Origin: Iphione sp. A-MEVVRFRX5
Lineage: Eukaryota
DNA: 64,000 bases
NCBI GenBank assembly: GCA_976226885.1
Contig: OZ320313.1
Span: forward strand, 121,892,001 to 121,956,000
Direction of reading: 5' to 3'
Below the pieces are notes generated by a model. It worked only from the letters and a program-made list of their open reading frames with translations, was not told where the DNA came from and did not search any database. This document shows positions 1-43,699 of the stretch, piece after piece. Positions within the stretch are counted from its first letter, which is position 1, and the number at the start of each line of letters is the position of its first letter. The position numbers and the translations under genes were made by a program.

Positions 1-900
1 GATCTGGTATATCTCAGAGTACAACAATGCTAGGAAATCAGCCCTTCTCATCAGAATTGGCTTTAATACTGTGGTCGGGATGCTGCATATACCAGATGAC
101 TTATCAAGACATATTTTCTTCACAATGTCCTTGATATCTGTTGGCAATGGCATCCTTATCTCAAACCCGTCCATGGTTCTAAGATCGGCTTCTGAACTGG
201 TGGCCAGTGAGTCAGGCACCAGCTTGTGTACTTCATCTATGAAGTACCGATTGAGTCTTTCAGGTATCATCAGGTACCGTTTTGTTAGCCCCTTTTCAGC
301 AAAGAACCTTGTTTAGAATTTTCCATAAACCGCCTGAATCCCCACTTGCATCCTCTAATCTCGAGGCCCTGTATCCTTTCCTTTCTTGTGCTATCACCTG
401 CTTTAGTTCACCATTTAGGTGCTTAAAGATCCTCAAGGCATCCAGGTCCCCACGTGTTTTCCACCTCCAATGGAAGTGCGGTCTGTCTCATACCAGCTCC
501 ATCACACCTGGGCTCATCACGTATCCATCCTTACATGACTGCACCCAAATATTCTTCTCAGGGCATTCCTCCTCCAAGATCTTCTGCAGATTCTCCTCAT
601 AGATTTCCCAGGCTTTTTCATGGTGTCCTTCCAGTTTCATCGCTTCCCCTCTCAGTCTTGCTTCCAGAATGTTGTGGTCCACCTCTTTCCAGCTCCTGAC
701 TGTTATCTGTTTTCTCTCGATATGCAGCTTGCTTTTCTTCAGAACACAAGACCGGTAGGTGGTCACTTAGGTACCACTAAAGAGTTACTTGGCTAGAAAT
801 ACCTTTAAACCAGATATGATCAGGCAATGTGAATTCTCAACCATCGTTCCTGCATCACAAACCTGGAGAAATCCTTTGCCAGCAAACAGGTCAGTATGCC
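1..900 (-). pseudogene. APE C-terminus, linker and start of RT of the decayed LINE
   Basis: TDLFAGKGFLQVCDAGTMVENSHC/DHIWFKG/SDHLP vs LSGLGLAQVIHGSTMVEGIHCNDQIWVN/SDHWP. RKQITVRSWKEV..EECPEK vs KEVIVRKWSEV..YQCPER. IPTTVLKPILMRRADFL vs VPTRILKPVLMNMADFV in the 28954-31698 ORF. Confidence 0.85.
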
Positions 901-1451
901 TTTGTTGTCAATACATACAGGATAATCCAGGCTTGGTATGATGAGACCATACCTCATCGCAGTCATCTGGGCATACATGTTGTGGCATGTGATTACGCTA
1001 TTCAAAATGAGTTGTTCATTGTTGTCGATGTCTGGCTCGACTCTTGACAGTAGCATCCCCGAGATTGGGCATATGACTAACTTTGGTCCTGAGTTGACTG
1101 GACCAGCAATCCAGTTATGAATTCAGCACTCATAATGCCAGAGTCTCTCAATATACTCCATAGTGCTCCGGTATCGCAGTGTCAATTGCCCGGTCTCATA
1201 CCTTAATAGCTCATGCATACCCAGGCAGATCATCTCTAAGTCATAGGTTGATGTATCAAAGTACAAGCACCTGCTCCATAGTCGCTTGTAAGAAGGTTTC
1301 ACTGCGATGATCCAGTCCAAGTCCAGGTCAATTGGTGGTAGGCCTTCATCCTTAAGATCCATCACAGCTTCATCGACCCGGCTATCCACAACCATCAGCA
1401 CTCTTGTTCGCCGTTGTCCAGGGCCCGTTATGCCCTTCCGAATTGAATATT
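900..1451 (-). pseudogene. SGNH-hydrolase-like frame (frameshifted, C-terminally deleted)
   Basis: RVLMVVDSRV, YDLEMICLGMHE and SRVEPDIDNNEQLILNSVITCHNMYAQMTAMRYGLIIPSLDYPVC match 32328-33011 (KVLIVYDYRA, YDLVIVVMGIYA, ERAEPDCDFEVEQLRLNAYINTHNLFAEATARELGMVPCYLDHPIC). Confidence 0.85.
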
Positions 1452-1599
1452 CTGCCAAGAAAACAGAGAAGGGAGAGCATGGTGGGTACTAGCGTTGCAA
1501 CATACAATGTACTAGACTATGTGGTAGCAAACTACCACTCATCATACACTGCTTATTTTGGCACAGTGTCCTGCAGATGTCATTCAGAAGGATTATGCG

Positions 1600-1900
1600 T
1601 CAATGACTCCCGAGCCCTTCATCCTGAATTTTCATCAGCACAAAGAATTTTCTCTCAATTTACCTCTAAATTCCTGCTCCATTCTTCTGTTCCTGCTAAT
1701 TTGTTTCCCGAGCATCATGCGTCCCAGCCACTTTCACAAGAGGCAACGTCCTTGACCTTTGTCTTGTCGTTAGTGGTGCACACTTTCATTGTTTGCAACA
1801 CAGTTTCACAATTGTCATATTCATACCCATCAACAAACATCAGGGCGTGCTCAAATGGAGAAAGACTCCGGGACTTTGACCAAAATGCTCCGGGGCAATG
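1600..1900 (-). pseudogene. NADAR-domain remnant (ORF1 C-terminus)
   Basis: FWSKSRSLSPFEHALMFVDGYEYDNCETVLQTMKVCTTNDKTKVKDVASCESGWDA*CSGNKLAGTEEW aligns with YFTKDTDNLSMEEKSPVSHNGTWYENAELAYQTEKARVCGDEKAILELRNCTSGFEARRIGNQIQTNEKW. In-frame stops present. Confidence 0.8.
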
Positions 1901-5603: not shown

Positions 5604-6089
5604 AACCTATTCTTCTGTCGGTGGTGTTGACATATTGGCTTCACAAAATATCGAAACAAAGCCTAATTCAGGGTAAATTGTAAGTAACCCTATACAAAAG
5701 CCTCAATAAACCTTGAAGACAAGCGAAAATTAAATCGGAGAAGCAAAATTCCTCTGCCGCCAGACCTCAGACTCTGCCAACTAGCATACAGAGTTTGCTG
5801 CGTGATGAGCCAAAGCCGCCGTGCAGGAGGGACAATTCGTTAATCTTCAAAAAACTAACAAATTGGAACTAGAAAAAGTTGTCAATAAGGTCTATACAGT
5901 AAAAACCTCAACAATCAGTGAAAAGAGCAAATTGATTTGTATAAATGAACCAGGAATTTTGAAAAAACTCACAACACTCGAGCAGCATGTCTGACGTCGC
6001 TTGACGAATGCTCTGATGTTGCCATCTGCAGGACGCCACATTTCACCTCTGCCGCCCCCTATCTGAGTGGTGGCGAGTTAGAGTTCAGA

Positions 6090-13376: not shown

Positions 13377-13600
13377 TCCCTCCCTTTTTGGAATAATGCT
13401 TATCACAGAATGTCTCTTGATTAGATTATCAAATGTCTATCAAATGCATACAAATTCCTCCATTCTGATACTTAAAACCTTTATAGAAAAATGTAGACTT
13501 CTTTAATAAAATAGCAAGTCTGGTAGCTTGCTCAGTCAGTTGCACTACGGGATTATTCTGCCCTATGCTAACTGCTGTTCTGGAATATGTGATATCCTTG

Positions 13601-21169: not shown

Positions 21170-23135
21170 ATTGGGTGGATATCACAATATCCCCCTAATC
21201 AGAGTTAAGAGATAAATCTGATAACGATGTATGTGTATAAAATGTTTGTCATTGGTGACTGTTAGATTATTTGACGGGTAAGAGTCCGAGTAAACCTTGA
21301 TACTATAATCTCTCTCTAATGAATATTATGGTTTGCTAGTGAGTAACACTGTTCTTTATGACATCTGTCACTAAACTAAGCTATGAAGGTTGGTAGACTG
21401 CTCATAACAGGATCCACATGAAGGTGTTATTCTGACCTCTTTGCCAGGTGGTCCCTATCTATTTTGACCTGTATCACACAGCTTTTCTCATGATATGGCC
21501 AGAATGAGTTGTTGTGGCATCCTTGTGCTGTTGTGCGAGTGACTCTGCATTGGGGGTCACAGGTGGCTTTGGATGGTCTGGAGCAACTGGAGTGGTAGCA
21601 TGTTCATGCTGTTGGGGGTGCCTCTAATTCAGGACACTCTGCAGCTCCTTCCTGAAGCTGTGATCTATTTCGCTTTATTTGTGTTCCTGCTGGGGTCTGC
21701 ACAATGTAGGACCTTGGCTCAGAACACTTTTCAATGACAGTTCCTGGGCACCATGTCTGTGATGGCTTGTCCATGATGTGCATTTTCTGTCTAGGACTCA
21801 GTGGTTGAAGCTCATGTTTCCTAGCCCTGCAATCATGGTATTAATTGTTCTTGTGCTGTTTCACTTCCATCCTCTGTTTGTCTTGTTCCTCTCTTTACTC
21901 TAAGTGAGATGGTAGCATAGTAGACAGTTTGTGGTTCATAAGTAGCTCTCCTGGCGATGGTCATTTTAGATCGATTGGAGTTGCACGGATGTTCAGCAGA
22001 GCTTTATTGATGTTTTGTCTGTTCTTCAAGCTTTTCTTGATCACTGGCTTGATCTCTTATATCTGACTTTCAATGAACCTATTTGACTGAGTGTAGTGGG
22101 GTGATGATGTTATATGTTTTATATCCTATTTGCTACAGAGCTTTTTGAAGGCTTCTCCTGAAAACTGGGGTCCATTGTCAGATTGGATCCCATCAGGCCA
22201 TCCAAACATATCAAAAGTTTCTTCTGTCAATCTAGAGACAGAATCAGACGTGACAGGACATTCAATTTCTTTAACCAAAGGGTATTTTGAGAAGTAATTA
22301 GACAGAATGATGAAGTATCTGCCCTTGATCTCAAAGAGGTCAGCACCAAGCATCTTCCATGAGGTGTGTGGCACTTCTGTTGGCAGGAGTAGTTTCTTTC
22401 TTTAGGCATCTTGCACTTCTTGGCACAAAGGACAATTCTTAACCATCTTTTTGATGTCTTCATTTATATTTGGCCAGTATACAGTGTCACAGGCCAACAT
22501 CCTTGTCTTTTTACCTTGGTGTCCTTCATGGAGTTGTTTTAGGATGTCTTCTTTCATTGATTAAGGAATAAGTATCTGTTTTCCTTTGAAGATAAGCAAT
22601 CTTCTAGCCTCAGTGCATCTCTGTATGACCCGAATGACCTCAGGGTTGTAGGCAGCTGTTTGATGCTTTCTGGCCATTCTTGATATATCACCTTAGCTAG
22701 TGTGTTCTCCGGGGCAGTATTGGATGGTAGAGTCATAATCCTGGACACGCAACAGCATCCTTTGCAGCCTAGGTGGGGCAGTTGCAATGGGCTTGGCACA
22801 CAACATCTCTAGTGGTTTGTGGTCAGTGATGATGGTGAACCTTCGGCCATACAGGTATGAGCTGAAACATTCAATTCTGTGGACTACTGTGAGAATTTCT
22901 CTTTCGATGTTGTTGTAGTTGGCTTGTGTCTTAGTTAGGGTCTTTGATGCAAATGCAATAGGCCTGTTGTCTTGCACTAGACAGGCTCCGAGCCCTTCAT
23001 GAAAGCATCAACTTCTAGTATCAGTGACTTGTTGACATCACAGTATGCAACACATCAGGCAGATAAGGCTTGTTTTAGCTCTTCAAAGGTCGCCTGGTGG
23101 TGTACGTCCCATGCAAAGGTTACTTCCTTCTTTAA

Positions 23136-23489
23136 CCCTATAAGGGTGGGTGATGTCTGAGGGCATTCCCAGGCAAAAGCCTGATAATGCCAGAGGCATT
23201 CCCATGTAAAGGCGAAGGATGCCTTCAGGCATCATGGACCAGGGTATAGTTTTAGAGTATTCCCAGAATTTTTATGATTTTTTTCCTTAAAGAATACATC
23301 CAAAATAGCCATAATTATGCCATTTTCTATGATTAGCACCAAGAAATCATTCTAATTTTTATACTTTTTATGTAACAGGCTGTGAAATATCATCATTTAA
23401 TAATATCCCTTGCCCTTTTGAAGGATATCTAACCAGATATCCTCGCCCTGTAGGGCAGTTAACTAATACCTGGTCTAGCCCTGAATGGG
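23136..23489. mobile_element. 354-bp piggyBac-type MITE in Gypsy pol
   Basis: TTAA at 23132-23135 and 23490-23493, CCC/GGG termini. Excision restores ELLKKEVTFAWD. Confidence 0.85.
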
Positions 23490-26478
23490 TTAACAGCTCT
23501 CACAAGGGAGCAGACATGCTTAAATTCAGGATGAAGCTTCCCATGTAGGTTATGAGCATAATAAATGCTGTAGATCCTCCTTTGTTTCCGGAAATGGCAT
23601 TTCACAGATATCTCTGACCTTTGCAGGATCAGGTGAGATGCTTTGTTCACTGTAGATATTTGCAAAAAAGGATATCAATCACTTCTTGATGTCGCAATTC
23701 TAAGTGTTAAACACAAGCCCATGCTCTTTGGTGGCATTTATGAGCTTGATCAGATTGGCATTGTGCTATTCCTCAGCAGCACCAAAGACACACACACCAT
23801 CGGCAATGCCTAAGCAGCCATCCAGACCTTCTAGGATTTTGTCCATCCTCTGCTGGAAGATATCTTGGCTGATATTCAATCCAAAGGGCAGTCTCTGGAA
23901 GCAGTATCTCCCAAAGGGTGTGCAGAATGTAGTGAGGAGCTGGCAGCTTTCCTCCAGTGGGACACTCCAGTAGCCAGCTTTTGCATCCAGCTTGCTGAAG
24001 AATTTGGCTCCCACAAAGCAGGTGTTCATCTCCTCTAAGGTAGGCATTTTGTGTGGACACCTCTTGACGGCATTGTTTAAGTGTTTAGGGTCTAGGCAAA
24101 CCCTGATGCTGCCATCTTTTTTTGTGCTGTATACAAGGCTTGAACACCAGTTGGGGTGTTCCTGGACTTTGCTTATGATGCCTGTGTCCACCATTCTAGT
24201 GATCTCAGCCTCAATCTTCAGGAGTAAATTGATGTTGCATTTTCTCGGTCTGTCAAGGTATGGTTCTGCATCTGCTTTCAATAGGATCTTGGCTGGTTCC
24301 TTGAGTTTTCCAATCTTGTCAAGCTAGTTGGGATATATATTGATGAGGTCTGACCTAGATGTAATGGGATTAGTCAGGTTATCCATCTCATAGGCATCGA
24401 CTCTCTCATAGGTGATGGACACAAGATTTAGCTTTTCACAGGTAGGGAGCCTGAGGACTGGCAGTCTGGGTATGTTAGCCACATAGAAGGTGGTCATCAA
24501 CCATGTAGATCTGCCATACTGGCATTTAGTGTCGAGGCTGCCAAGACATCTAATCACATTTCCTAAGTAGGAAGTCAGTCTCATGTCAGTGGGTGTAAAG
24601 ACTTCCTCTAGTTTGACATTTCCATACATCTGCCAAAATGTCCAAAGTGGTAAGGCATTTGCATTGGCACCAGTGTCGAGCTTAACACCCAAGGTGTGCT
24701 GGCCAGATATCCTGGGTATTTGCACATTAAGCAGTCTGTATGCTTTGTCCTGTGTAACAGCATCTAAGTTGGTGAGTACCTAGAATCCTTTGACATATGA
24801 CTCACTAGTATCACTGTCACTATCCAAGGTAAACCTGGTATCTTCAACCATGTGGACCTTTTTCTTGTTGCTGCAGGGCTTACTACTGGCTTTCTGTTCA
24901 GCTTAGATGAGTCAGGCTTTTGGTGGCCCTCAGCCTTAGCCTTCTGACAGAGATCCTTCCAGTGGCCGATTTTACCACAGAAGTGATATTCTGAGTTGTA
25001 TGCAGGATATTGGTGATATTGATGAATGTTGCACTTCCAATATTGATACTTTTATAATCGGTGACAAGGTGCTCTACCTTGCTATACTTATTGCAATATT
25101 CAAGTCTTAAAACATTATTCATTGTCTAGTAATATTTATGTGACATGTATATGTAATTTATAGAGTCAAGAGCATAGCCACATCGTACAATCATGTATAT
25201 GTAATTTAATGTACATCAATATATAACCGACCATACTATTAACTTAGTTTTGACCAGATGACTCATCTCTTATCAGTGTATAAAGATCAGGAGCCAATTA
25301 CTTATGGAAAGTATGTAACATCCTTCAGGAATAAATTATTCAAAAATCACAAATCACATTCTTGGTAGTTATGTACTGTTCCACAGTTCCCACATGGCTT
25401 TTTCTTGGGTCGAATGTCACATCTTATGTGGTCAACTTTTAGGGTTACAAATTTGTTGTGTACCCATGAATGCTGCCTCATGCTGGCAACCCTCTTTGAG
25501 GACTACATCAAACAATAGGTCTCTGTCCTTTCCCAACAGATCCCATCTGAAAGCTTCAAATGGGGTCCTGGCTATAATAATAATCTGGTCCTGAAGTTCC
25601 TTGTTTCTAAACTCACACAGTAAGGCTTGTGTATGGGCCCTGAATACAAACTCATCAAGACTTTCACCTTTTTTTATCAGTATTGCAGTAAAGAAAGCCT
25701 GTGGATGTGGAAATTTAAAGCAACCTTTAGCTGGTCTTCAGAAAACTTTCAGAGCTTGTCTGGGTCTTTACTATTGGTGTCACTTAGGCTGGATGCATTG
25801 AGACACCATAAACCCTCATCAGCTAAACCAATTTTGATTTTGCACGCAATTTTTGTCTTATCAGTAACATCATTATCATCACAGACAAGGGTAATTTTTT
25901 GCTTAAAAAGCCTAAAAGCATCAGCAAGATTTGTGTCATCCCAATTCATGGTAGGGTACTTAGACACCTTTTTGGTATGGTATTATAGGTAGGCTTATTG
26001 GTAGGTAGTACAGAAATTATGGTACAGTGATGTCAGTTATTTCTGTATAAAGCCTATACAGGTAAGTAGAAGTGGCAGTTACTTCAGTATTTAGCCTACA
26101 CAGATATTTGTTATTTTCCCCCTCCTGTGCTAGTATGTGGAATATATGTGATGATGGGGAACAACCGGCGTTATATGGACTGCATGCTCTCACTGGTGTC
26201 ACAAGTAAATTCCTCCTGGCACTGGTATTGTAGGGTCAGTCTGGAGGTGGTAGCAAAACATGCAGCCTACTCACAGTTATGGCCTCCCTATTAGGCATTT
26301 AACTGTAGGGATGAGTACTCACATCCATGCTCCACTGCTATCACCATGAAGTGGTATTGTAGTTATATAGAGAGTGGAGATGAGTGTTTTACTTTGGTAG
26401 CTTTTATTTCATCCTAGGCACATGGCTGGAAACAGGAAGTAGCAGTGAGGTCAAATATCCAGTGAGTAAAACTGAATA

Positions 26479-27777: not shown

Positions 27778-28953
27778 CAGTTGCCTCTGCCTAAAGCATC
27801 CACCAAAGGGACTGTACAAAAGTGGTCTCCTAAGGCGAATGGTCGCCTAATCCATTGGTTAGGGGGTCAAGCCACAAAAAGATAATGTCTGAAATAATGT
27901 TCTAAAAGTGCTTAATTTGATGGGCAATAGTCCAAAAACGTTCTAAAAGTGCTGAATTTGATAGGGAAATGTCCAAAAAAGTTTTAAAAGTGCTCTTTGC
28001 TAGGTTCACTTGAGGGTTTCCTGTCACCTACAAAGCAGGTGACCGCTGACTTTTAGCACCAGGAACACTCAAACAACATGGGCAACCATCACTTGAGGGT
28101 CTCCTGTGACGTACAAAACAGGCGACTGCTGACTTTTAGTGCCAGAAACACTCAAACAACATGGCCAACCATCAATTGAGGGTCTAGTGTCACCTACAAA
28201 GTGGGAGACCACTGAGCTTTTGTGCTAGAAACACTCCAAAAACATGTGCGACCTGGGCTTGAGGCTCCAGTGTCACCTATTAAGCAGGAGACTGCCGAGG
28301 TCTCTGTCTGGATATGGGTTATCCATTGTTAAGATAAGATAAGATAAGATAACTGTTTATTCGGAATCTTTGAAATACAAAGTTCTTCGTCCGAAATATG
28401 TCGGACAATAAACTGGTTCTGCTAAGACGCGTTGAAATGTCTGTAATGATGCTTGAATACATTTGTCGGCCATAGACTATCACAATTTCGTTAGGATACA
28501 TAAATATTAAATGGTTGTCAGTTAAGGTAGGTATAATACTTAGTTCACATACTGGCCAGCAATAATCAAGTAGATCACAGATACAATGGATACAGGGTAC
28601 AAGAGAATCTTAGGTATTTGTCAACGTTACCCGAATATGCTTGTCAGCCAATCACTATCACAGTTTCCGTTAAGATACGTAGTAAAAGTAGTCTGTTAAG
28701 GTAGATGTAAATACCTGATTTAGTATTACGGCTATAGTGTATAACTCCACATCGTATCATGGGCCCTCATGGCTCGTACCCCTAGCATTATCAATCATCC
28801 ATGGGCTGTCTGTCAACCGTGAATTCACACATTCACACTCCTTGTTGTTATCTGTCTCACAGTCACTCATCATCAACCATACACCTTCATACTCCCCAAT
28901 CATCCATGATACTGTTCTCCCAGATATACCGACTCTACACCCAGAACCAATCA

Positions 28954-31698
28954 TTAACCCTTCGATAGGACCCATCTAGCCCTTGATTGTTCAGGTAACT
29001 CGTTCCACAGCTTAACTGCTTTATATCTGAGTGATCTTGCAAATAGAGACGACTTGGGTTTTGGGAGCGACCCACACCAGCCCAGTCCTTTTCTGGTACG
29101 AGTTTTCTCCTTCACAGGTATCAGTCCAAGATGCATTAGTTGATGGACTAGTAATAGTCCCTTGCTTTCAATAACCTCAGATACCCTCGGCAGACCATTT
29201 CTCCTTTGAAAATCGGTGGGGCTTTGGCGCTGATTACTCATGAGCGCCGCACGAACGCATTTATTTAGGCACACTTGGGCCCTGACAACATCTGATGGAT
29301 TGATTCCGAAAAGGCAACCCGCATGATAGTACAGATGCGTTAACACTAAACTATTGAACATCATCACCCTCACCTTCAGTGGCAGTATGATCTTTGTTCT
29401 CGCGATTCTGATTGCTGATAGCCACATTTTGCTGTTGAGTTTCCTGACTGACTTTTTCATGGTCAACTTTGCGTCAACCCACATGCCCAGCAGTTTCACC
29501 AACGTGACTGATATTAGCTTTTCCCCGTTGATGGACAGATCTAGGTCTATCCCCCGAGCGCGCCCCATGGGCATGTGTACGCACTTGTCTACGCTAATGA
29601 TCAGGCCCAGTGATTGGCACCAGTTCTCGACTGCCTTTAGTGCCGTAATGGCCACGCCCCTCAGCCTTAATAGGTCTCTGGCTCGTACCATCAATGTTGC
29701 GTCGTCCGCGTATAGAACCGATGACACACCATCCGGTAGACATAGTGATAGGCTGTTGATGATCAGTAGAAACCCCAGAGGTCCAAAGACGGACCCCTGG
29801 GGTACGCCGTGATTCACCTGCCTCACCTCTGACCTAGAGCCATGGCACTCAACATACTGCCGCCTGTCATTTAAATAGCTCTGCAGCATTGATGTGAGTT
29901 TTGGCCCTCCACCCACTCTCTCGACTTCGTCAATAACCTTCTTCCTAGGCACTAAATCAAACGCTTTTTTTAGATCTAGTAGTATGAGGCAGACATACTC
30001 GCCCCTGTTCATCGCCTCATGGGAGTCGGTTATCAGCTTACCCACAGCAGTCTGAGTTGAGTGCCTGCTGCGGAAGCCGTGTTGTGTGTGACTAATGACT
30101 CCCCTATCCTCTAAAATCCGTTGCAAGCTTCTACTAAACCATGCCTCACAAATTTTGCCTATCACAGGCAAAATACTAACTGGCCTATAATTTGCAAGGC
30201 AGTTCCTATCACCTTTTTTATACACAGGACAAACTCGAGCGACTTTCCAGCTCCCCGGGTAAATCCCGGTTTGATAAACTTGAGTGAAAAGCCATACCAC
30301 AAAGTCCGCCATGTTCATTAGCACTGGCTTCAGGATCCGTGTAGGCACCCCTTGTATCCCGGACGACTTTCTGACGTCAACTCTCTTAATTAGACTGACG
30401 ACTAATTGCTCTGTTGGTGGCTCAAGCTCGAATGTATTCTCCTTTCCAACTTTTACACCCTTACTGTTTGCGCATGCACCCGGCTCACCTGTCTGTACAA
30501 GGCGCTCCACCTCGTCTATAAACTGGCCATTAAACCTTTCGGCTAAAGATGGAAGACCATCAACTGGGCCAGGGAGCGTGTCCTTCACCTGATCTCTCCC
30601 CATACACTCATCTATGATACCCCATAATTTTTTACAATCTCCACCAGCTTTTGCTACCCTGTTTGTCCAGTATTCCTGTTCTTCTTTCTGCACTACCTGC
30701 TTTAGCTTATTGTTTAAAAACTTAAAAATGTTTCGGCTATCGCTACATCCTGTCTTCTTCCATTTCTTTAAAAAATAGTATCTATCAGCCGCCAGTTCTT
30801 TGGCACCTTCACTCATCTGAAAACCGTCTCTCCTAACTCTTATCTCTATTTTCCTCTCCGGGCACTGGTAGTCTAGCTCATCCCTAACGGCTCCTATTAA
30901 CCCATCCCATGCTTCTACATGTCCCTGACTTGTTATATCCACTGCCGATTTGCCCTTATCTATCACCTCTCCTATATTCACCTCACTCCATTTTCTAACT
31001 ATTACCTCTTTTTTTACTTTGCTAACCTTTCCCTTCTTCAGCACAATACTTACTGGCCAATGGTCGCTGAGCGTCCCTATCCCTATGGTACCACCTAGGT
31101 GTCCACTGAAATTTACCCATATCTGATCATTACAGTGAATCCCTTCTACCATGGTGCTTCCATGAATCACCTGGGCAAGTCCCAACCCACTTAGCATCTG
31201 TGTGAGGCTTCTCCCAGATTTACCCTGGTCCCCGTAGTGGAAATTTAGATCCCCTAGTAGTACAGTATCCGTGTTACCTCTCTCCCCCCATGTGTCCCAT
31301 ACGTATTGAAGATCCCTCATAGAGTTTGCTATTTTATCTGAAGGTGGTCTATAGGTACATATGATCTTCATCGGTTTCCTTTTCCCATACTTTAGTTCCA
31401 CCCCCAAAAACTCACAAAGACCAGCTACTCCCGTTGGGCGGTACTCACTCAATAGAGTTATTCCCTCACGAACATAGATTACTATTCCCCCACCTTTCCT
31501 CTCTGAGCCGCTCGACCTATCGGCCCTAACACTCACATACCCAGTAATCTTAATCTCACCATCCGCATGGCTTCGGTTTAGCCAACTCTCAGAGATGCAC
31601 ATGACATCTACGTGTTCATTTGCCATGTACTCACTCAGCTCGCCTATTTTCTTTCTCAAACTCCTGACGTTATAGTGAGCTACCTTGACCCCCTTCAT
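28954..31698 (-). CDS. APE endonuclease - reverse transcriptase polyprotein (914 aa)
   Basis: APE: NVRSL, SESWL, GGGIVIYV, YRPP, GDLNF, SDH. RT: NYRPVSILP, QHGFR, DLKKAFD, GVPQGSVFGP, YADD. Confidence 0.97.
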   Translation of the reverse strand: MKGVKVAHYNVRSLRKKIGELSEYMANEHVDVMCISESWLNRSHADGEIKITGYVSVRADRSSGSERKGGGIVIYVREGITLLSEYRPTGVAGLCEFLGVELKYGKRKPMKIICTYRPPSDKIANSMRDLQYVWDTWGERGNTDTVLLGDLNFHYGDQGKSGRSLTQMLSGLGLAQVIHGSTMVEGIHCNDQIWVNFSGHLGGTIGIGTLSDHWPVSIVLKKGKVSKVKKEVIVRKWSEVNIGEVIDKGKSAVDITSQGHVEAWDGLIGAVRDELDYQCPERKIEIRVRRDGFQMSEGAKELAADRYYFLKKWKKTGCSDSRNIFKFLNNKLKQVVQKEEQEYWTNRVAKAGGDCKKLWGIIDECMGRDQVKDTLPGPVDGLPSLAERFNGQFIDEVERLVQTGEPGACANSKGVKVGKENTFELEPPTEQLVVSLIKRVDVRKSSGIQGVPTRILKPVLMNMADFVVWLFTQVYQTGIYPGSWKVARVCPVYKKGDRNCLANYRPVSILPVIGKICEAWFSRSLQRILEDRGVISHTQHGFRSRHSTQTAVGKLITDSHEAMNRGEYVCLILLDLKKAFDLVPRKKVIDEVERVGGGPKLTSMLQSYLNDRRQYVECHGSRSEVRQVNHGVPQGSVFGPLGFLLIINSLSLCLPDGVSSVLYADDATLMVRARDLLRLRGVAITALKAVENWCQSLGLIISVDKCVHMPMGRARGIDLDLSINGEKLISVTLVKLLGMWVDAKLTMKKSVRKLNSKMWLSAIRIARTKIILPLKVRVMMFNSLVLTHLYYHAGCLFGINPSDVVRAQVCLNKCVRAALMSNQRQSPTDFQRRNGLPRVSEVIESKGLLLVHQLMHLGLIPVKEKTRTRKGLGWCGSLPKPKSSLFARSLRYKAVKLWNELPEQSRARWVLSKG

Positions 31699-32327
31699 CC
31701 CAAGGATGTTATGCCTAACTAATGTGAGTCAGAAAGTGATACGGTGCCCTCCGTTGTTCTCAGTCACTCACCAACCATCCAGCCAGACAATTCACGATCA
31801 TACGTTCTAGAATAACATTCATAATCAGGTGACAAGCCACACATACTCTGATAACATTCTAACCCGGGATATATGCATATCACTCCACGCTCCTAACAGC
31901 CATTCCTCTTAGATAATAGCTCACATATTTACAACATGAACGTACGTACCCTTATTCTGCGATAAATATACAATCTGACTACGCCAGCTTCTTCTCATTT
32001 CAGATTCACCACGCTTAAATTTCACAAATGTACAACGTAAATGCAATGTATAACATAAACATCCATACGATTATTCTGCTTTACACGATCAAATCGACAG
32101 CATTGATATCTAGAAGGTAACTGTTCCCGGGCTTTCTCCCGCTAGTAAAACTTCTAATAAAACAAGATGCGATTATCTAAACGTCTGATGGAATCGGTAA
32201 ATATCAACGCAAACACTCAATCTTGTTTAAGATACCATACTGGTCTGGCGATGTTCATTCTACACTAGAAATAGTGTCTTTGAATTAGACCAGGCCAGTA
32301 TAACACCACCCAATCAGGTCTGATACC

Positions 32328-33011
32328 TTAGTGCCCGTGCTTCCTCATGTACTCTCGTAGTGACTCACATAAGATGTGTGTCCAATCGGAAAGGGCCAGT
32401 CTCGTCGGAGTGACCCCATCGTCCTCAAGGTACATGTCCTCAATATGGAGACCACCGTTTCTCATACTGCAGATTGGATGGTCCAGGTAGCATGGCACCA
32501 TGCCTAGCTCACGCGCCGTTGCTTCTGCGAACAAGTTATGAGTATTGATGTAAGCATTGAGGCGCAGCTGTTCCACCTCAAAGTCGCAGTCCGGTTCCGC
32601 ACGCTCCATTTGCGCGGACGCCAAGTTGGCAAGTAGCACCCTTGGACCTACGTCGTTTGGACGACAGATGTTCTTCACCAGTTGTAGATAGTAGTTCATG
32701 TGGAGTGCGAACGAGCGCGGCGATTTCGGCGTCAGCGTCCAATGGCCCTTCTCCAGCTTCATCACCGCATAGATGCCCATGACCACAATCACTAGGTCAT
32801 AGGCCGATACGTCCTTGAACAATCGCTTTTTGGCCAGGCGTCGATACGACATATGCCTGACTTGTACTCCGTGGATTGTCATCCTCGGTAGGTGTTCAAG
32901 ACCGATCCGCCTTACTGCTCTGGCTGCTCTGTAGTCGTATACGATGAGCACCTTCACGTCACGGCCCATCCGTGCGTGTCTGTTCGTCTTGATGACTACC
33001 TCTGTTGTCAA
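32328..33011 (-). CDS. SGNH/GDSL-hydrolase-like protein (the ORF-track start is TTG; first ATG is at aa 15; probable spliced exon starting at 33001)
   Basis: Block-I-like KVLIVYDYR, block-III-like YDLVIVVMGI, RVLLANL, block-V-like LEDDGVTPT..W. A homolog is conserved in the relic at 900-1451. Confidence 0.7.
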   Translation of the reverse strand: MTTEVVIKTNRHARMGRDVKVLIVYDYRAARAVRRIGLEHLPRMTIHGVQVRHMSYRRLAKKRLFKDVSAYDLVIVVMGIYAVMKLEKGHWTLTPKSPRSFALHMNYYLQLVKNICRPNDVGPRVLLANLASAQMERAEPDCDFEVEQLRLNAYINTHNLFAEATARELGMVPCYLDHPICSMRNGGLHIEDMYLEDDGVTPTRLALSDWTHILCESLREYMRKHGH

Positions 33012-33217
33012 AGAGAAAACACAGTTCTCAGAAGCAGTCCGAGGCGGCTACATATTTCTGCCTTCATATCAATAAAACACCCACTGAGGATCGTAACGCT
33101 AGCTAAGTGCTTGTGACAGACCCTCATAAGATAGTAACAAGAACAATAGCAATCTGTACAAGTGCAAAACCATCATATTATCACACAATAAAAATATTTC
33201 ACTCGTACATGATCAAG

Positions 33218-35083
33218 TTACTGGGCCACCCCGGATTGTGTACGCCTTACACTAGCACAAGGAGCACCTGTGTCAACGGCCGATCTTGGTAGATTAACAT
33301 CCTGTGCATTTAATTTATCACGTATTCTCATCAAAACATTCCCAAGAGTGTTACTACCGATTTTCTCAAGGCATTCATTTCCATTTGGCAGCCATGGCCC
33401 ACTACCAGTACCAATATAACTATCCCAGTCACAAAAAACCAGATGGTTCCTCGTTTCCATCAGTGCCTTTCGTGCCAACAGAGAGAGTTCATATTTACTA
33501 GTTAATACTTCCTCCAGTGTTACCTCTGAACTCGCGGACCATTTTTCGTTAGTCTGGATTTGGTTCCCAATGCGTCTCGCCTCAAATCCACTCGTACAGT
33601 TGCGAAGTTCCAAAATTGCTTTCTCGTCACCACACACCCGCGCTTTCTCTGTCTGATATGCTAATTCGGCGTTCTCGTACCAAGTACCGTTGTGCGAGAC
33701 CGGACTTTTTTCTTCCATCGATAAGTTGTCCGTGTCTTTTGTAAAATAGTGATGCTCACCCCTCGTTTCCTGCGAATTCTTGCCTGGATGTAATTTATGA
33801 GGTAATAAATCCAGGTTTTTGTAGCTGAGGACGGTCCCGTCGATCACGACATCAACACCTCGAACCGTTGCACGACAGCCATGGCGCCGCGCCGCTGCCG
33901 CAACCTTCTGTAGTTTGTTGTGTTTTTCCAGGCCCGTAGGTGGAATCTCCTCCTTAAAACGCACTCGTCTGCATCCCTTCAACCGTGTGAGATTGCTCTT
34001 CTTACTCAGGGCTACATCTCTCAAGATGCTGTCCTTGAAGAGGACTCCCATCGTCGCCGTATTGTTGTTTTCTTCCAAGCAGACGACATCAGAGATACTG
34101 TCGTCACTCAGACCAGAGGCATTACGCACTATCTTCCTTGTCACTTGGTATCTATTGATGTCTTCTTTGGTGCTAACGCCTTCCACCAGTAGTTTTCTTG
34201 ATCTATCCCGAATCTCGATCCTAGTTAAGTCATCATCAACCCGGTCGCATCTCTTGTCAGTCAGCATCGCGAGCGCTTCCACCCGCTTCATTGATGCTTG
34301 TATGTCTTGTAGCCTGCTCGAGTTCACGTCAATACACTCATCTCTTGCCTCTACCTTGGCTGATACATCATCCAATTTAACCTTCAATAGATTTAGTTCT
34401 ATCCAGACTTGATCCCGCAGTAACTTCATCTCTTTCTGCAGGCCCCGGACGAGTGAGAGGATCGCTTCCTCTGACCCTACTGTCGTGTCAACGCTGTCAG
34501 CCACCACTTCGTGCTGTCCGTTTGCTGCTTCTACCGGTCCGCCCTTAGCAGCCGTCGTGGGTGACGATGCGCCCGTATCTATAGAACCGGTTACGTCATG
34601 TTGCAAGGTAGAGGATGTATTTACAGCATGGACATCCTCATCATGGCCAGTATCCTGATGCCGCACCGATATTGTTGACAATCCACTGTCAGTGTCAACA
34701 CCCACCATCGTAGGCGTGACAGACTGTGTCAACTCCGTTTCAATCACCAAATCACCCTGTGTGTCTTGTTGCACCTCAGTATTTGGTTGTCTTCCTGTGT
34801 TTTTAGTTGATGTATCACCCACTCGCTTGTCTTTGCCATACCTTTTTTGCGTCTTGGGCCCATAATCGCCAGACATACTGGTCGCCAGCTGAGTAGTCGC
34901 GCTGACCTTTCCCGCTCTTCCTCGTGTTGTTCTCCTATTGTCGCCCGGTGGTCTCGATCCTGGAGAGAAATCCATGATATCTCCCACCGACAGACTTTTC
35001 TCCCTCAATCTTGCCATGGATCTCAAAATTGGGGTATTCATAATGCCCCTGCTGTCCTCATTTAATCGAGGTCTGCCCGGCAT
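33218..35083 (-). CDS. ORF1p (621 aa): disordered N-terminus, coiled coil, L1/Tnp22-like RRM region, C-terminal NADAR (YbiA-like) domain
   Basis: Heptad-rich EEAILSL...RIEIRDR; RSRKLLVEGV; RVRFKEEIP. NADAR motifs GTWYENAELAYQTEKA..GD, EARRIG, W, KY, ALMET, DSYIGTG and GSNTLGNVLMRIRDKL at ~33310-33755. Confidence 0.88.
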   Translation of the reverse strand: MPGRPRLNEDSRGIMNTPILRSMARLREKSLSVGDIMDFSPGSRPPGDNRRTTRGRAGKVSATTQLATSMSGDYGPKTQKRYGKDKRVGDTSTKNTGRQPNTEVQQDTQGDLVIETELTQSVTPTMVGVDTDSGLSTISVRHQDTGHDEDVHAVNTSSTLQHDVTGSIDTGASSPTTAAKGGPVEAANGQHEVVADSVDTTVGSEEAILSLVRGLQKEMKLLRDQVWIELNLLKVKLDDVSAKVEARDECIDVNSSRLQDIQASMKRVEALAMLTDKRCDRVDDDLTRIEIRDRSRKLLVEGVSTKEDINRYQVTRKIVRNASGLSDDSISDVVCLEENNNTATMGVLFKDSILRDVALSKKSNLTRLKGCRRVRFKEEIPPTGLEKHNKLQKVAAAARRHGCRATVRGVDVVIDGTVLSYKNLDLLPHKLHPGKNSQETRGEHHYFTKDTDNLSMEEKSPVSHNGTWYENAELAYQTEKARVCGDEKAILELRNCTSGFEARRIGNQIQTNEKWSASSEVTLEEVLTSKYELSLLARKALMETRNHLVFCDWDSYIGTGSGPWLPNGNECLEKIGSNTLGNVLMRIRDKLNAQDVNLPRSAVDTGAPCASVRRTQSGVAQ

Positions 35084-35333
35084 GATTGTGGTTTGTGACT
35101 GATTATCTGGAGAGCACCGCGTACACGTCCTACTCGAGCGCCATATAAATAAAAATGTTTGGTACTGAGATTCATGGTCTTAATGGCCGAATGGTGTCCC
35201 TAGCAATTAGTTGCCATGGGCAGAGTCTGCTACATAGAGAATACACTAAATTTCAGTCGGCTCTGGGAAAAAGTGGTCGCCATGGATGACTGGTCTCCTG
35301 AAGCGAATGGTCGCCAGGTGAGAGTTGACTGTA

Positions 35334-36045
35334 CATCCATCCTTAAAATACTGAGGTTGGTCCTCACCAAAAATAAGTACATGTATCAACGGAATGGCCA
35401 TGAGCACCAGGGTGGTACCGACATATGCAAATCTTTATGGCGGTGCCATACCAGTACCTCTGGAAGCAGTTCATTGAAAACATCTTCCTCATCTGGACAC
35501 AGCAAGCATGAATGAACCCATTTCCTCGAACATATCAACAATGCTACTCTGGATCTACAATTCACCTTCACCATCTCCAACACCTGAGTTACCTTACTAA
35601 ACAGCATCATCATCATCAAGCAGACAACCCTCTACTTTTACTTTGGGGTCAAGCCGACAGACACCGGGGCTTATCTCCACTATACTTGCACCCATCCCCA
35701 CTGCTGCAAGAGGATGATCCCATACAACCAGTTTCTCCAGGTGAGGCGTAAATGCTCCAAGGAGGCAGACTTTTGGAAACAGGCATTAATTATGGCTGGG
35801 GCATTCATTAAGCAGGGCTACCAGAGAGATTGTCTGATTTTTACCCTCCTATGTGCCTCCAGACTTAGCCGCTAGGGTCTTATTCCCCTCCACCCCAGCC
35901 CCACCTCATCCACTCACAGTTAAGATCATTCAGGAGAACCACCAATTTCATGCTATCACTACATATACCCCATGCTTCATGGCCTTTAGGAACATACTCA
36001 CCAAGAACTGGCCAGTCTTAGCACAGTCCCTTTCTGCACTACATA
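35334..36045 (+). pseudogene. PLE RT relic, piece 3 (RT core/thumb)
   Basis: LRLVLTKN, GMAMSTRVVPTYANL, FLEHINN, KPTDTGAYLHYTCTHP..IPYNQFLQVRRKCS, ITTYTP. Confidence 0.85.
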
Positions 36046-39427: not shown

Positions 39428-42400
39428 ATCAAGAATCAATCAAGAATCAAGAATCGTTTATTCACTTCTTAACTGACAATGTCAATAAGATCTCCCAGCG
39501 AAAAGCGACAGGAAATGACATAATATAAGAGATAACTTAGGTACTAACTATACAAAAAAATATCTTTGACTAGAATCCATCATGCTTGAAGTTAGTATTC
39601 TAATTGTCGTAGTCTGTGACAAGTCTCGATTGCACATCCGATTCTTTTTCGCTACCTATCATTTCTTTTATTGGTCACTTCATAATTATCAACTACAAGA
39701 AAAGTCTTCTTTTATTTGACTATTAGGCATCACATTCTACAGTTAAAAAATCTTTTACATCGGTCATTATAGTTGCAACACATATCCACTACTGGACTCT
39801 TATATCACTTTCTCGTTCTTCGTGGTTTGTATGGAGTACACCAATTCCATTAGTGACGGGGATTAAGCATGCATCTCTGGTGTAGCAAACGTCTCCTGAA
39901 GGTCTTCGGGTCCACACAGGTTCGTAGTGACACCGGGAGGTTATTCCACATCTTCACACCTGAATAGAGAAACGAATTTTTATACAGGCGCGTCCTAGGT
40001 TTTCTCATTTGCAGTACTGGGCCTACACTTAATCTTGTATGTGCACCATTTCTCTTGGTCTTTTCCTTCACAACTCCCAGCAGGTATAGCCTGTGGATCA
40101 GACAGACTAGGGCTCTATTGCCTCTTGTCTCAAGTGTGTCTATTCGCAGCTTGGCTCTCAACCTTGTGTTTGACATATATGAGAATCGTCTTCCTATCAT
40201 CATACCTCTCATCACCCTATTGCAGTGTAATTGCAAATTCTCTAAAGTTGTCCGACCATGACATACTAGGAATGGAAGACTGTAGTCGAATAGCGTCAAC
40301 AAGAAGCCTTTGAATAGTCTGCCTTTTTCTTTGATGCTGAGACAGTTAGAAATTTTGCTAAGGTAGTACCCTCTCTGCCTTGTCGTCTGAGATAATTTAT
40401 TCAAAAGAGGTTGCCAATTTAATGAACTATCTAAATAATGTCCCAGAAATTTGCAGTTTTCCGTTTTTTGAAGTTGATTGCGATTTAATGTTAGATCTAG
40501 ATCTAGGTCCTTGCTCTTGCCAAAGGTCATATAAAAAGTTTTTGCGATACTTACAATCAGACCATTTTTACACGTCCACTCGTGAACGTCGCGTAGTCCA
40601 CGCTGTAACTTTAGCCACAGTGCCAGCGCATTGGAAGCCACAGCATATATCGTTACATCGTCAGCATACATTATACTGGATGTCACTAGTTGCGTATTTG
40701 GTATGTCGTTTATTAGCACACTGAACAAGAAGGGGCCCAGTATGCTCCCCTGTGGGACCCCAATCGGCATAGCAACTGAATCTGAACAATGACCATTGCA
40801 TTTAACAAATTGCTTTCGATCTGATAGATATGACTTGATCCAGGCTATTGTTCTTGGTCCTATTCCAGCTCCTACTAACTTATTTAGAATGATCACTTGA
40901 TTGGCCAGATCGAACGCCTTCGTCATGTCAATGAAGACCACTCCTACATGTCTATTGTTATCTATCGCTTCGTAGACGCCTGCTAGTAGGGCTGCCGCTG
41001 CTGTGGAGGTGCTTCTACCCGGTCTAAAGCTATGTTGTTGCTGACTAAAAAAATGTGTGCTGTCCAGATAGTCCACTAGTTGGTTGTATACCAGTCGCTC
41101 TAGGACCTTACCTATGATTGGCAGAATCGCTACTGGCCTATAATTGCTGCTGTCTGCCTCCAACCCTTTCTTATGTAAAGGAGATATTCTCGCTGATTTC
41201 CATGAGTCAGGGAATACCGAACGTGCTATGGAGTCATTAAAAATGTCTCTGATTGGATTTACGGCCAAAATTAAACTGTCTTTCAAGATTTTCATTGGGA
41301 TATTTTCGAACCCACTAGGTTTGTTTATTTTTAAGGTTTGAATTACTTTTGAGACTTCCGATGCTCTTACCGATTTTAACTCCCATCCCATACTATTCTG
41401 AGCATTCTGTGTGATATTTAATCCCAAGTCATTTGATAGTTGCATTGGCTGGCTGACAAAGTAATCGTTGAGGATACTTGGTACCCTCGTTGTTTCAACC
41501 CATACACCCCCTTCCTTCAGACGTATTTCTTTTGGGGTCAGTTCCCTCTTCAAGACTAGATTATTGATTACTTGCCAGTATTCGCGGATATCCTTGCATG
41601 CATTTAGCTTCTTTGCAAAAAATTCCCTCTTTAATCTATGACATAATTTCTTTACCCTTCCCTTGTAATATTTATAAATTCGGAAACTGTCAATATTCCC
41701 TGTTGTCCTAAAGTCTTTCAGGAAATAATCACGGTTGGCAATATATTCTTTCAACTCCCTCGTCACCCATTCTTTCCCATTAGGCCTTTTCTTTTTCTGT
41801 TTTAAAGGGCAAACTGCATCTACCGCAGTCTTGATTGCTTCTTGCAAAGATGTCCATTTAACCTCCCCTTTCTCCTCATGATTGTTTTCTACTGCAAGTA
41901 TGGTTTCCAAGATATGTTCATTTAAGATGTTCTTATTGTATTGAGACCAGTCCCTGCACAATTTTGTTTCTTTGTTCTTTTTCTCCCTGTCCTTTTTGTC
42001 TGTGATGTATGTTGCTACATGATCACTTATTGCATCATCGAAGGTACCGCTCTTATTTATTGTGGACATGCTGGAAAAGATAAGGTCAATACATGATTTA
42101 GCCGTTTCATGAATTAACGTTGGCACTCCGATGTATTGATGTAGGCCCACTGAGCTGCATGCGCTCAACAGGTCTCGCTTTGCCAGTGACTCATTAAAGA
42201 TGTTTATGTTGAAATCACCTCCTAGTACTATATTTGCAAAGCCCTGTTTCCGAAATTTTATAAGCTTGTCTTTTATATTACTTGTGAGCTCCCTCAAATT
42301 CCCATGCGGTGGCCTATAGATTGTTCCTAGTATCAATGGTTTGCGATATGGACTAGATATTTTTAACCAAAGACTTTCTAAGTTCTCATCAGAAACGCAT

Positions 42401-42873
42401 TCCTCTTCCAATTTTTCCGCATTGGCCAAATTGCTTACATACACCACAACCCCTCCCCCCCGTTTCTTTCTATCATTGCCGCGGTCCTGCCTTATACAAT
42501 GATACCCTTCCAACTTTATAGCGGACAGCGGTACTGCACTGTTCAGCCAAGTCTCTGATAATCCACATGCAAATATTTTCTCTCTTCTTATTAATGATTC
42601 AAATGAGTCAATTTTTGGTAGTAGGCTATGTATATTTAAGAAACAAAAGACACGACCTTTCATACTTTATTGATATATGAGCTATATCGTATACGTTTTC
42701 CAAATTTAGTAGATATATAGACGATAAGATACTAGCCAATTGAATCTGACGGAGTATCAAACGGCTCCAGGCAATTATATCCTACTAACAGATCTACAAA
42801 CTGGCCACATCTGAAATGCGGACAGTTTGAGAAAGAACGGAGGGTTTCCTTAATCTGGACGTTCGACTGAACT
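39428..42873 (-). mobile_element. CR1-group LINE with an intact APE-RT ORF, no ORF1 (probably 5'-truncated)
   Basis: 3' end AATAAA + (GATTCTT)n at 39428-39462; ~210 nt upstream of the ATG, then host repeat. Confidence 0.88.
39850..42663 (-). CDS. APE endonuclease - reverse transcriptase polyprotein (937 aa)
   Basis: NIHSL, SETWL, GGGVVVYV, YRPP, GDFN, SDH; NYRPVAILP, DMTKAFD, GVPQGSILGP, YADD. Confidence 0.97.
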   Translation of the reverse strand: MKGRVFCFLNIHSLLPKIDSFESLIRREKIFACGLSETWLNSAVPLSAIKLEGYHCIRQDRGNDRKKRGGGVVVYVSNLANAEKLEEECVSDENLESLWLKISSPYRKPLILGTIYRPPHGNLRELTSNIKDKLIKFRKQGFANIVLGGDFNINIFNESLAKRDLLSACSSVGLHQYIGVPTLIHETAKSCIDLIFSSMSTINKSGTFDDAISDHVATYITDKKDREKKNKETKLCRDWSQYNKNILNEHILETILAVENNHEEKGEVKWTSLQEAIKTAVDAVCPLKQKKKRPNGKEWVTRELKEYIANRDYFLKDFRTTGNIDSFRIYKYYKGRVKKLCHRLKREFFAKKLNACKDIREYWQVINNLVLKRELTPKEIRLKEGGVWVETTRVPSILNDYFVSQPMQLSNDLGLNITQNAQNSMGWELKSVRASEVSKVIQTLKINKPSGFENIPMKILKDSLILAVNPIRDIFNDSIARSVFPDSWKSARISPLHKKGLEADSSNYRPVAILPIIGKVLERLVYNQLVDYLDSTHFFSQQQHSFRPGRSTSTAAAALLAGVYEAIDNNRHVGVVFIDMTKAFDLANQVIILNKLVGAGIGPRTIAWIKSYLSDRKQFVKCNGHCSDSVAMPIGVPQGSILGPFLFSVLINDIPNTQLVTSSIMYADDVTIYAVASNALALWLKLQRGLRDVHEWTCKNGLIVSIAKTFYMTFGKSKDLDLDLTLNRNQLQKTENCKFLGHYLDSSLNWQPLLNKLSQTTRQRGYYLSKISNCLSIKEKGRLFKGFLLTLFDYSLPFLVCHGRTTLENLQLHCNRVMRGMMIGRRFSYMSNTRLRAKLRIDTLETRGNRALVCLIHRLYLLGVVKEKTKRNGAHTRLSVGPVLQMRKPRTRLYKNSFLYSGVKMWNNLPVSLRTCVDPKTFRRRLLHQRCMLNPRH

Positions 42874-43699
42874 TGCCATTACTGCCAGTACCTAACACTA
42901 CAAAATTAGCATTGGATCAATACAGGCATGTTTACTGGGTAATATGCACCATCTTATAATTTGTTAAAGTTTGATTTTTGTTCAGTAACTTTTCAGAAAG
43001 TAAGACATGATAATTTAAATGAATCTGTCTATGTTGGTTAATAGATTTACATCCTTAGAATTGAATAATTGGGACATTTTAACAGTGTTTGGTCTAGTTC
43101 TAAAATATTTCTTGATGTAGTGGTACTTTTCTCTGTGTTCCTGCGTAGCTGGACAGATGAGCATGTCATAAAATTCAGTTTGTTAGTCATACATAGATGA
43201 CAAGGTGTAAAACTATGATCAGTGCTAAGTACAATGTATACTTCTACTTTTGGTAGTTTATAGTCACGTTTTCCTACATCTAAAGAGGTTATATATTGCT
43301 GTGGGCTTGTCTCATGTTTGAATATTCAGTAGTTTATAAACAACTTGTCTATCAAGTTCTGCATTCCAATTTTGGGTATCCATCTCCCTTAGCCTGAGAT
43401 TTATTGACTGTTTTAGCCATTTGGAATTGTAAATCTCTTTCTGGGTCCAAACATTAGAAAGACCACTTTTATCCAAGGTGTTTTTGACTTTTGTCTTCTA
43501 TTTAGTTTTCAGAAGGTTCTTCTCATGGAGTTGGCATAGTAGTAGATAGATATTGTCTGAGATTTTTGTGTGTGAGATTTCTTACCTGAGAGCACCAGAA
43601 GGTAATCATTCTCTTTTCAGTGGTACTGTTTAAGGGGAAGCATCCCAGATCGCCATATACTACATGTATGCAATTTGCCATGTTGATCTTTAAGCATTT

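Follow-up and report, generated by a model that had tools for sequence, protein, structure and literature searches.

How does a retrotransposon express a protein whose reading frame lies behind the stop codon of another, in a different register and with no ATG at its head? The question is raised by a long interspersed nuclear element (LINE) on the minus strand of a 64,000-nucleotide stretch from Iphione sp. A-MEVVRFRX5 (contig OZ320313.1, positions 121,892,001 to 121,956,000), animal DNA dense in transposon remains; this whole stretch is referred to here as the window, and all coordinates are given within it. The first-pass annotation had described a phase-1 splice acceptor at the start of the middle of three frames in two divergent copies, and had suggested that a spliced RNA joins open reading frame 1 (ORF1) and its NADAR domain to an SGNH-like domain while the unspliced RNA is retrotransposed. 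The conserved acceptor in this three-ORF LINE is real and statistically unusual, and we regard it as moderately probable, judging from sequence, that it is a regulated cis-splice site which, joined to some donor within ORF1, would give an in-frame ORF1-middle-domain protein.

The intact element is a non-LTR (long terminal repeat) retrotransposon of the apurinic/apyrimidinic endonuclease (APE) type, with an ORF2 encoding endonuclease and reverse transcriptase (EN-RT), no LTRs and a short-repeat tail; no terminal repeat longer than 6 nt was found at its ends, and a search for a target-site duplication gave 6-mers only. Its parts are arranged as follows.

28330..35150, minus strand: intact non-LTR retrotransposon with three tandem open frames; 5' end approximate
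33218..35083, minus strand: ORF1, 621 aa, start ATG 35083
33002..33217, minus strand: spacer 1, T-rich (37% T), with six ATGs ahead of the middle ATG
33002..33024, minus strand: acceptor candidate of the intact copy, pyrimidine tract and CAG; exon start 33001, phase 1
32328..33001, minus strand: SGNH/GDSL-like middle frame of 224 codons, counted from the acceptor
32967..32969, minus strand: internal in-frame ATG, the 11th codon after the acceptor and five codons before the first conserved strand
31699..32327, minus strand: spacer 2, 629 nt, 17 ATGs, without strong acceptor and without AATAAA/ATTAAA
28954..31698, minus strand: ORF2, 914 aa, APE endonuclease and reverse transcriptase (Pfam Exo_endo_phos, E 1.7e-08; RVT_1, E 1.3e-30)
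28330..28953, minus strand: 3' untranslated region; AATAAA at 28361-28356, (TCTTA)n tail at 28352-28330

The middle frame is separate from ORF1, being in another reading frame behind the ORF1 stop, and no canonical poly(A) signal was found between the middle frame and ORF2.

A shared acceptor motif in two divergent copies

A relic of a sister family, at 1870-1 on the minus strand, has the same order as the intact LINE: NADAR, then the middle frame, then ORF2.

1601..1870, minus strand: relic NADAR with its centre deleted (tblastn, 31% over 87 aa)
1452..1478, minus strand: acceptor candidate of the relic, pyrimidine tract and CAG; exon start 1451, phase 1
898..1451, minus strand: middle frame of the relic, interrupted by one stop and missing its C-terminal end (32% over 175 aa)
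1426..1428, minus strand: relic ACG codon in a strong start context, possibly a decayed start
1..895, minus strand: ORF2 of the relic, starting near endonuclease residue 166 and cut off by the edge of the window (35-38% identity)

Protein identity between relic and intact element is about 30-38% overall, and 7 of the 29 four-fold third positions compared in the middle frame are identical. These sites are saturated; relic and intact element therefore represent two old families, not recent duplicates, and neutral inheritance cannot explain the acceptor that they share. Decay of the relic amounts to about 8 stops in some 555 codons, and two internal deletions have removed the centre of NADAR (at about 1650) and the stretch from the middle-frame C-terminus through the first 165 endonuclease residues (at about 896). 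Its upstream limit, near 1870, is a 126-nt duplication adjoining an inverted repeat of a DIRS-like element, and a search of the rest of the window did not turn up the missing upstream part of its ORF1.

The two motifs are as first described, on the minus strand with exon starts at 33001 and 1451 and the codon split after its first base, and they stand in exact ungapped register, 2 nt and 16 codons (50 nt) before a shared V-L-x-V-x-D strand. By a generic acceptor score, the weights of which were picked after the sites had been seen, each ranks first on the sense strand of its own element (1 of 541 AGs in the intact copy and 1 of 146 in the relic) and high in the whole window (83 and 7, respectively, of 8579). 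A weight-free count of pyrimidines likewise puts the relic site at the top of its 48 YAGs, whichever of four window sizes is used. When both upstream segments were put through 4000 dinucleotide shuffles, a site as good as that of the relic arose in 0.075%, both sites reached the score of the intact acceptor (4.96) in 0.18%, and the best sites were equidistant in 0.4%. An acceptor this strong was present in the preceding 120 nt of none of six fused-SGNH LINE loci and none of 14 ORF2 starts. Upstream of the acceptors the residues do not align (BLOSUM -16) and the overlapping upstream ORFs (uORFs) lie in different frames, so that a protein constraint or a shared frameshift is an unlikely cause of the resemblance. 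The evidence is the coincidence of place, phase and rank; neither acceptor alone would suffice.

Of the other signals expected of an intron, GT...AG ends and a polypyrimidine tract are present, the acceptor being clear and the donor ambiguous. For a branch point, expected 18-40 nt upstream, the intact copy offers only loose matches, at -30 and -10, and the relic none. RNA structure in the spacer is not significant (z -1.7), and there was no Rfam match. Two more acceptor-like sites were seen on the minus strand of the intact element, one at 35106, 23 nt before the ORF1 ATG, and one at 34959, early in ORF1, which is the runner-up to 33001 with a score of 4.59.

The domains of ORF1 and of the middle frame

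What a splice would join depends on the contents of the two frames. In ORF1 three parts were delimited, the second of them putative.

34199..34468, minus strand: coiled-coil-like segment, about residues 206-295, in heptad register
33761..34198, minus strand: putative L1-type RNA recognition motif (RRM) and C-terminal domain (CTD)
33311..33757, minus strand: NADAR domain, residues 443-591 (Pfam PF08719)

Hydrophobic residues fill 72% of the a/d positions of the coiled coil in one heptad register, against 4-52% in the others. The stretch between coiled coil and NADAR presumably resembles the RRM/CTD of L1; neither Pfam nor PDB gave a match to it, hhalign was negative, and the Atlas offered only Baculo_FP_2nd at 0.78. 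NADAR is recognized by Pfam at E 6e-15 (56 bits against a cut-off of 35.1; profile positions 9-162 of 163), and both copies carry a Glu-x6-Lys pair, assigned by spacing alone. Protein searches with ORF1 and with the middle frame gave no matches, one of them having covered proteins of 30-60 aa only. In NADAR proteins, a conserved Glu-Lys pair with a spacing of seven residues (E88/K95) is described as catalytic (PMC11543638).

The SGNH label given to the middle frame at first pass draws on embedding similarity and on motifs, and it receives no confirmation from Pfam, profile-profile comparison or fold search. In the Atlas, the middle frame lies at 0.94-0.96 to five listed clusters of 196-272 aa, one of them mostly eukaryotic with Mollusca commonest; Lipase_GDSL_2 is present in 21-30% of the members of two of these clusters, and all 10 of the 10 family-bearing matches belong to the same clan. 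No match was found in Pfam, in PDB or to a profile of six LINE esterases, and hhalign paired the block III region correctly but at a probability of just 0.3. Structure models were both poor (pLDDT, the predicted local distance difference test score, 45-46) and yielded only generic helical matches in the fold search. One alignment, A1, held about 25 relic C-terminal residues later shown to be out-of-frame ORF2, which weakens the searches and the model derived from it. With the SGNH block layout taken from PMC5408684, the intact copy has, by motif position, Tyr for the catalytic Ser of block I, Tyr for Asn in block III and Thr for His in block V (Asp-x-x-His); in the relic the Asp-Ser is kept and the Asn lost. 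The middle protein is best called SGNH-like and probably non-catalytic.

Such a domain may still bind something. The OSK domain of Oskar binds RNA, and hence RNA binding is one guess for the middle domain. Membrane binding is another, and a reasonable one by analogy, because mutation of its active site leaves the ZfL2-1 esterase able to bind liposomes (PMC3905857).

Donor sites and the readings of the acceptor

Three donor-like sites within ORF1 were considered as partners for the acceptor.

33754..33762, minus strand: best phase-1 donor candidate in ORF1, GGG/gtgagc; first intron base 33759, at the N-terminal edge of NADAR
33262..33270, minus strand: weak phase-1 donor of the first-pass annotation, CAG/gtgctc; first intron base 33267
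33245..33253, minus strand: phase-0 donor-like site, AGT/gtaagg; first intron base 33250

The proposal that the acceptor feeds a spliced ORF1 fusion gains from the agreement of position, phase and rank in two saturated families; its original donor, 33267, is present but weak, and 33759 is the better candidate. The latter ranks 1 of 38 among phase-1 GTs and 3 of 104 overall, with 8 of 11 matches to U1, and it splits codon 442, one residue ahead of the Pfam NADAR match, which starts at 443 (profile position 9). With 33759-33002 excised (758 nt), there results an open 665-aa product in which the coiled coil and the putative RRM/CTD are kept and the middle domain replaces NADAR. The lead of this donor was recognized post hoc and is modest.

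If this donor is used, which we tentatively take to be the likeliest form of the splice, the same ORF1 protein (ORF1p) would end in either NADAR or a dead SGNH-like domain, the two being mutually exclusive. Unspliced RNA would give the 621-aa ORF1p ending in NADAR and would serve as the full-length template. Excision of the 758 nt would give the 665-aa ORF1p, with its coiled coil and putative RNA-binding part unchanged and with a C-terminus that would be catalytically dead and probably lipid/membrane- or RNA-binding. Mixed ORF1p oligomers could then combine the NADAR and SGNH-like functions.

Splicing seems to us the best reading because the acceptors of the two families agree in place, phase and rank and because SGNH domains usually occur fused at the C-terminus of a long ORF1, behind a coiled coil, a form to which splicing would return the element; a free middle protein would be without the coiled coil that generally precedes esterase domains. 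Set against this are, besides the post hoc choice of the score, the runner-up score of the site at 34959, the pyrimidine count of the intact site (only in the top 6-27 of 224 YAGs), and the frequency of equally good sites in shuffles of its upstream segment, 6.7%, which is modest taken alone. The acceptor comparison rests on two copies, one of them decayed. Among 5000 synonymous recodings of ORF1, an equal donor appeared at 33759 in 16.8% and was the best phase-1 site in 9.7%; the relic counterpart of the 33759 stretch is lost, the relic has no good phase-1 donor after NADAR (which tells mildly against 33267 also), and the strongest donor of ORF1, 34841, is phase 2. Finally, a spliced RNA would retain ORF2 and the 3' tail, so that exclusive copying of the unspliced RNA, as first suggested, does not follow; processed copies should therefore exist unless the unspliced RNA is preferred.

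The strongest rival, which we consider rather unlikely, dispenses with splicing: reinitiation or internal initiation would begin a free middle protein at ATG 32969, and the motifs would be coincidental features of a T-rich spacer. That ATG lies just ahead of the first strand and could give the whole middle domain without splicing, and the relic has its ACG 1428 in a strong start context. In both copies the stretch from the preceding in-frame stop to the acceptor lacks an ATG, in keeping with what was first reported. This absence, offered as an argument for splicing, is neutral: the intact copy has ATG 32969 available, and the relic may have lost its own, the chance that a given relic ATG has been altered by decay being an estimated one in four or thereabouts. 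The pairing of the internal Met with a relic Thr holds only if a gap is allowed (ACG 1428, three codons earlier than the position of ATG 32969); the ungapped partner is Gly (1419). Over the 11 codons before the intact Met, there is no real similarity to the relic (BLOSUM 0), which gives no positive sign that this segment is coding. The T content of the spacer (37%) makes chance motifs easier to accept, as do the occurrence of such a site in 76 of 1064 random 120-nt bins of the window (7%) and the chance recurrence of a 14-mer of the relic acceptor at 60249-60262, antisense in another LINE. The similar Atlas proteins are stand-alone ORF calls of 196-272 aa, a kind of call that is blind to introns, and the route to ORF2 likewise leads across 17 ATGs, with no acceptor evident. 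Translation without splicing requires, however, two independent top-ranked acceptors of identical phase and register, for which the 0.4% of shuffles is the measure, and passage of six ATGs between the ORF1 stop and 32969. Moreover, a coding exon is favoured by the constancy of the 50-nt length in copies whose putative starts lie three codons apart.

The splice model does not account for the position of ORF2, which follows 629 nt of spacer containing 17 ATGs and lacking a strong acceptor. A donor-like site at 32326 lies one base past the middle-frame stop, and weak tandem acceptors at 31718/31714 follow a CTGAC; a splice between them would put the ORF2 ATG about 21 nt from that stop, and neither site is high-ranking. 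As a second intron across spacer 2 by which ORF2 might be reached, the pair 32326 and 31718 was rejected as unsupported (ranks 9 of 95 and 5 of 48).

Among in-frame cis-splices, the version of the first-pass annotation, with 33267 as donor, forms part of the favoured reading and is in itself unlikely. Its 266-nt intron would give an open phase-1 fusion of 829 aa, ORF1-NADAR-middle domain, and the site has a perfect CAG exon end, 7 of 11 matches to U1 and the best phase-1 score past NADAR; the intron is short, and a weak donor would fit partial splicing. The site ranks, however, only 7 of 38 among phase-1 GTs, 14% of the GTs of the window score as well, and the relic has no comparable phase-1 GT after NADAR, though that region may be deleted. 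In-frame splicing from ORF1 donors other than 33759 and 33267 is improbable. The gtaagg donor at 33250 is indeed phase 0, as had been noted, and its joining to 33001 meets an immediate stop; its combination with a neighbouring GAG acceptor at 32999 was rejected (score -0.44, rank 979 of 8579, no relic counterpart).

A little less likely again than the 33267 fusion is a splice or trans-splice that frees a monocistronic mRNA, in which the acceptor is joined to a non-coding or out-of-frame exon (from 34841 or 33250) or to a spliced leader, the latter conditional on the host having trans-splicing, and translation starts at 32969. The acceptor is 32 nt before that ATG, and 34841 and 33250 both have a strong intron side and run into a stop at once, with no donor shown to be conserved. 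Identical phase and ungapped register are not predicted by this arrangement, however, and ORF2 is not preceded by an acceptor of like strength (the best one nearby scores -0.92), which the resolution of a polycistron would need.

Far less probable is a mini-exon. Spacer 1 contains a uORF in the middle frame (33176-33099, minus strand) with an ATGATG start, hydrophobic residues and the look of a signal peptide, and its 33176-33122 portion, ending at a phase-1 GT (33121), might be joined to the acceptor to make a secreted or membrane-targeted, env-like protein. Its hydrophobic core reaches 3.1 (Kyte-Doolittle, 8-mer), and a uORF opening with ATGATG, again in the middle frame, is present in the relic spacer (1489-1545, minus strand). 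The relic uORF is not hydrophobic (1.15) and has no signal-peptide look, however; the donor 33121 is weak (5 of 11 U1 matches), T-rich spacers give hydrophobic residues by chance, and an internal promoter or an upstream splice would be required. Least credible of all is an origin of the motif in protein constraint, acting on an N-terminal extension to which a near-cognate TTG start, readthrough or a frameshift would give access: the in-frame tracts do encode hydrophobic residues followed by Thr/Ala-Glu in both copies, but stops lie 12 and 15 codons upstream, the upstream residues score -16 ungapped, the overlapping uORFs are in different frames and the start context is poor.

Related elements and the meaning of a possibly spliced LINE

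The window around the two copies holds other mobile elements. The relic LINE is adjoined by a 126-nt tandem duplication (1870-2121) and by a DIRS-like remnant at 1870-6085, with 43-nt inverted repeats (2201-2243 and 6043-6085), a gag-like ORF (4414-5571, minus strand) and the start of a reverse transcriptase; a second DIRS-like remnant lies at about 6100-7000. Another LINE lies at 39430-42900 on the minus strand. Its EN-RT frame, 938 codons long and intact, stands at 28% to the main ORF2, and its tail is of (TTCTTGA) type; there is no ORF1 or middle frame upstream of it, and it is probably 5'-truncated. From their motifs we take 13600-17520, 22690-25740, 49130-50130 and 52280-55880 to be decayed Gypsy-like LTR remnants (gag, protease, reverse transcriptase and integrase motifs), 35400-35800, which flanks the 5' end of the intact LINE, to be a remnant of a Penelope-like reverse transcriptase, and 46396-46788 to be a piggyBac-like fragment. 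A tblastn match at 58500-61230, plus strand, is presumably a decayed LINE with reverse transcriptase and RNase H.

Relatives were sought through reverse transcriptase scans, from which 83 loci were retained (three, and the best 80 of 195 confirmed). NADAR or the middle frame was found in none of the 83. An SGNH domain stands upstream of ORF2 in eight, C-terminal in one long ORF1 in six of them, all invertebrate LINE loci, truncated in one and split by a stop in one; all seven SGNH-bearing loci tested gave a Lipase_GDSL_2 match, three above the cut-off. Two loci, L006 (899-2359) and L027 (330-2942), are invertebrate LINE ORF1s with fused SGNH, and the active site of L006 is degenerate, from which it appears that catalytic loss recurs in fused SGNH domains. 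A tree of ORF2 bearing on membership in the CR1 group (CR1/L2/Crack/Daphne/Kiri) was built from 44 of the 83 loci, with 39 shorter matches excluded; in it the element sits on a long branch (1.43), at no more than 35% identity to the 44 loci, which include no labelled clade references. The ORF2 is unlike those of L1 and Tx1 in that its tail is made of short repeats and a C-terminal zinc knuckle is not evident. Protein searches, together with middle-frame scans of metagenome and viral contigs, did not yield a third copy covering the acceptor, and ORF2 scans of viral contigs gave no matches. Of three matches in a HMMER search, P0001 and P0002 are repeat artefacts and P0003 (111 aa) is a real C-terminal fragment that stops short of the acceptor. 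Three contigs filed in bacterial metagenome-assembled genomes (L001, L002 and L003) are animal DNA with LINEs; tandem intronless genes for cysteine-rich secreted proteins on L001/L002 (2200-14700) are presumably cystine-knot cytokine-like.

The element resembles the LINEs with an esterase (type IV) ORF1 (ZfL2-1, CR1, L2, RTEX) in being an APE-RT element whose SGNH/GDSL-like domain lies ahead of ORF2; in those, the domain is inside ORF1 behind a coiled coil, its active site is mostly intact and none had an RRM in the Repbase of 2013 (PMC3905857; PMC4120745), whereas here it occupies a separate frame behind a stop and an acceptor-like site, its catalytic positions are degenerate, and NADAR and a putative RRM are present. 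Among CR1, L2, RTEX and Penelope-like elements there are known cases of an esterase ORF1, generally with a coiled coil in front (PMC3905857). Two surveys of CR1-group ORF1s count the esterase among the ORF1 types, and the string 'splic' does not occur in them (PMC4120745, PMC13343379). GDSL also forms an extra ORF3 in rotifer LTR and Athena elements (PMC5408684). NADAR stands at the end of ORF1 in oyster Tx1 LINEs, as here, and NADAR-Pol occurs in Ectocarpus Gypsy elements; the passages of that report considered here mention neither a middle ORF nor splicing (PMC12477816). In the Atlas, NADAR is present in 100% of the members of clusters of 415-489 aa.

As regards splicing, the nearest parallels lie outside the LINEs. 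The env of gypsy and errantiviruses is likewise a third ORF made from spliced RNA, with the full-length RNA as template, but these are LTR elements that package their unspliced RNA and whose splice drops gag-pol (PMC4276936), whereas the splice proposed for the LINE would leave ORF2 whole and ORF1 largely so. The short GAG mRNA of the Ty1/Copia element EVD of Arabidopsis is a case of conserved alternative splicing that alters a structural protein; there, splicing is coupled to premature termination (PMC5580714), and the LINE has no canonical poly(A) signal after its middle frame. If spliced, the element works as a retroviral or Copia splice does; its membership is with the LINEs and not with those families. 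Splice sites within non-LTR retrotransposon RNA, as proposed here, are known from human L1 and from TART (PMC5860796; PMC1636488). The spliced RNAs of human L1 (SpIREs) encode non-functional ORF1p and give dead-end copies (PMC5860796), which is a cost for the splice model, and the introns of TART are antisense (PMC1636488); in contrast to both, the acceptor described here is apparently kept across two families at the start of a domain. Because LINEs copy via their own RNA, sense-strand introns should be lost from them. No LINE with a separate spliced esterase-like ORF was found among literature titles and the beginnings of abstracts, a search whose scope excluded Repbase reports and supplementary tables of esterase ORF1s.

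If the favoured reading, in-frame cis-splicing of ORF1 to the middle domain, is correct, one element would unite an esterase-like domain with a putative RRM, a combination absent from the 2013 Repbase, in which no esterase ORF1 had an RRM (PMC3905857). A LINE would then balance spliced against unspliced RNA as retroviruses and Copia elements do, which raises the matter of how the unspliced template is chosen. It would also provide a mechanism for the shuffling of domains in LINE ORF1s, whereby a domain that is first an optional exon is later fixed by processed copies.

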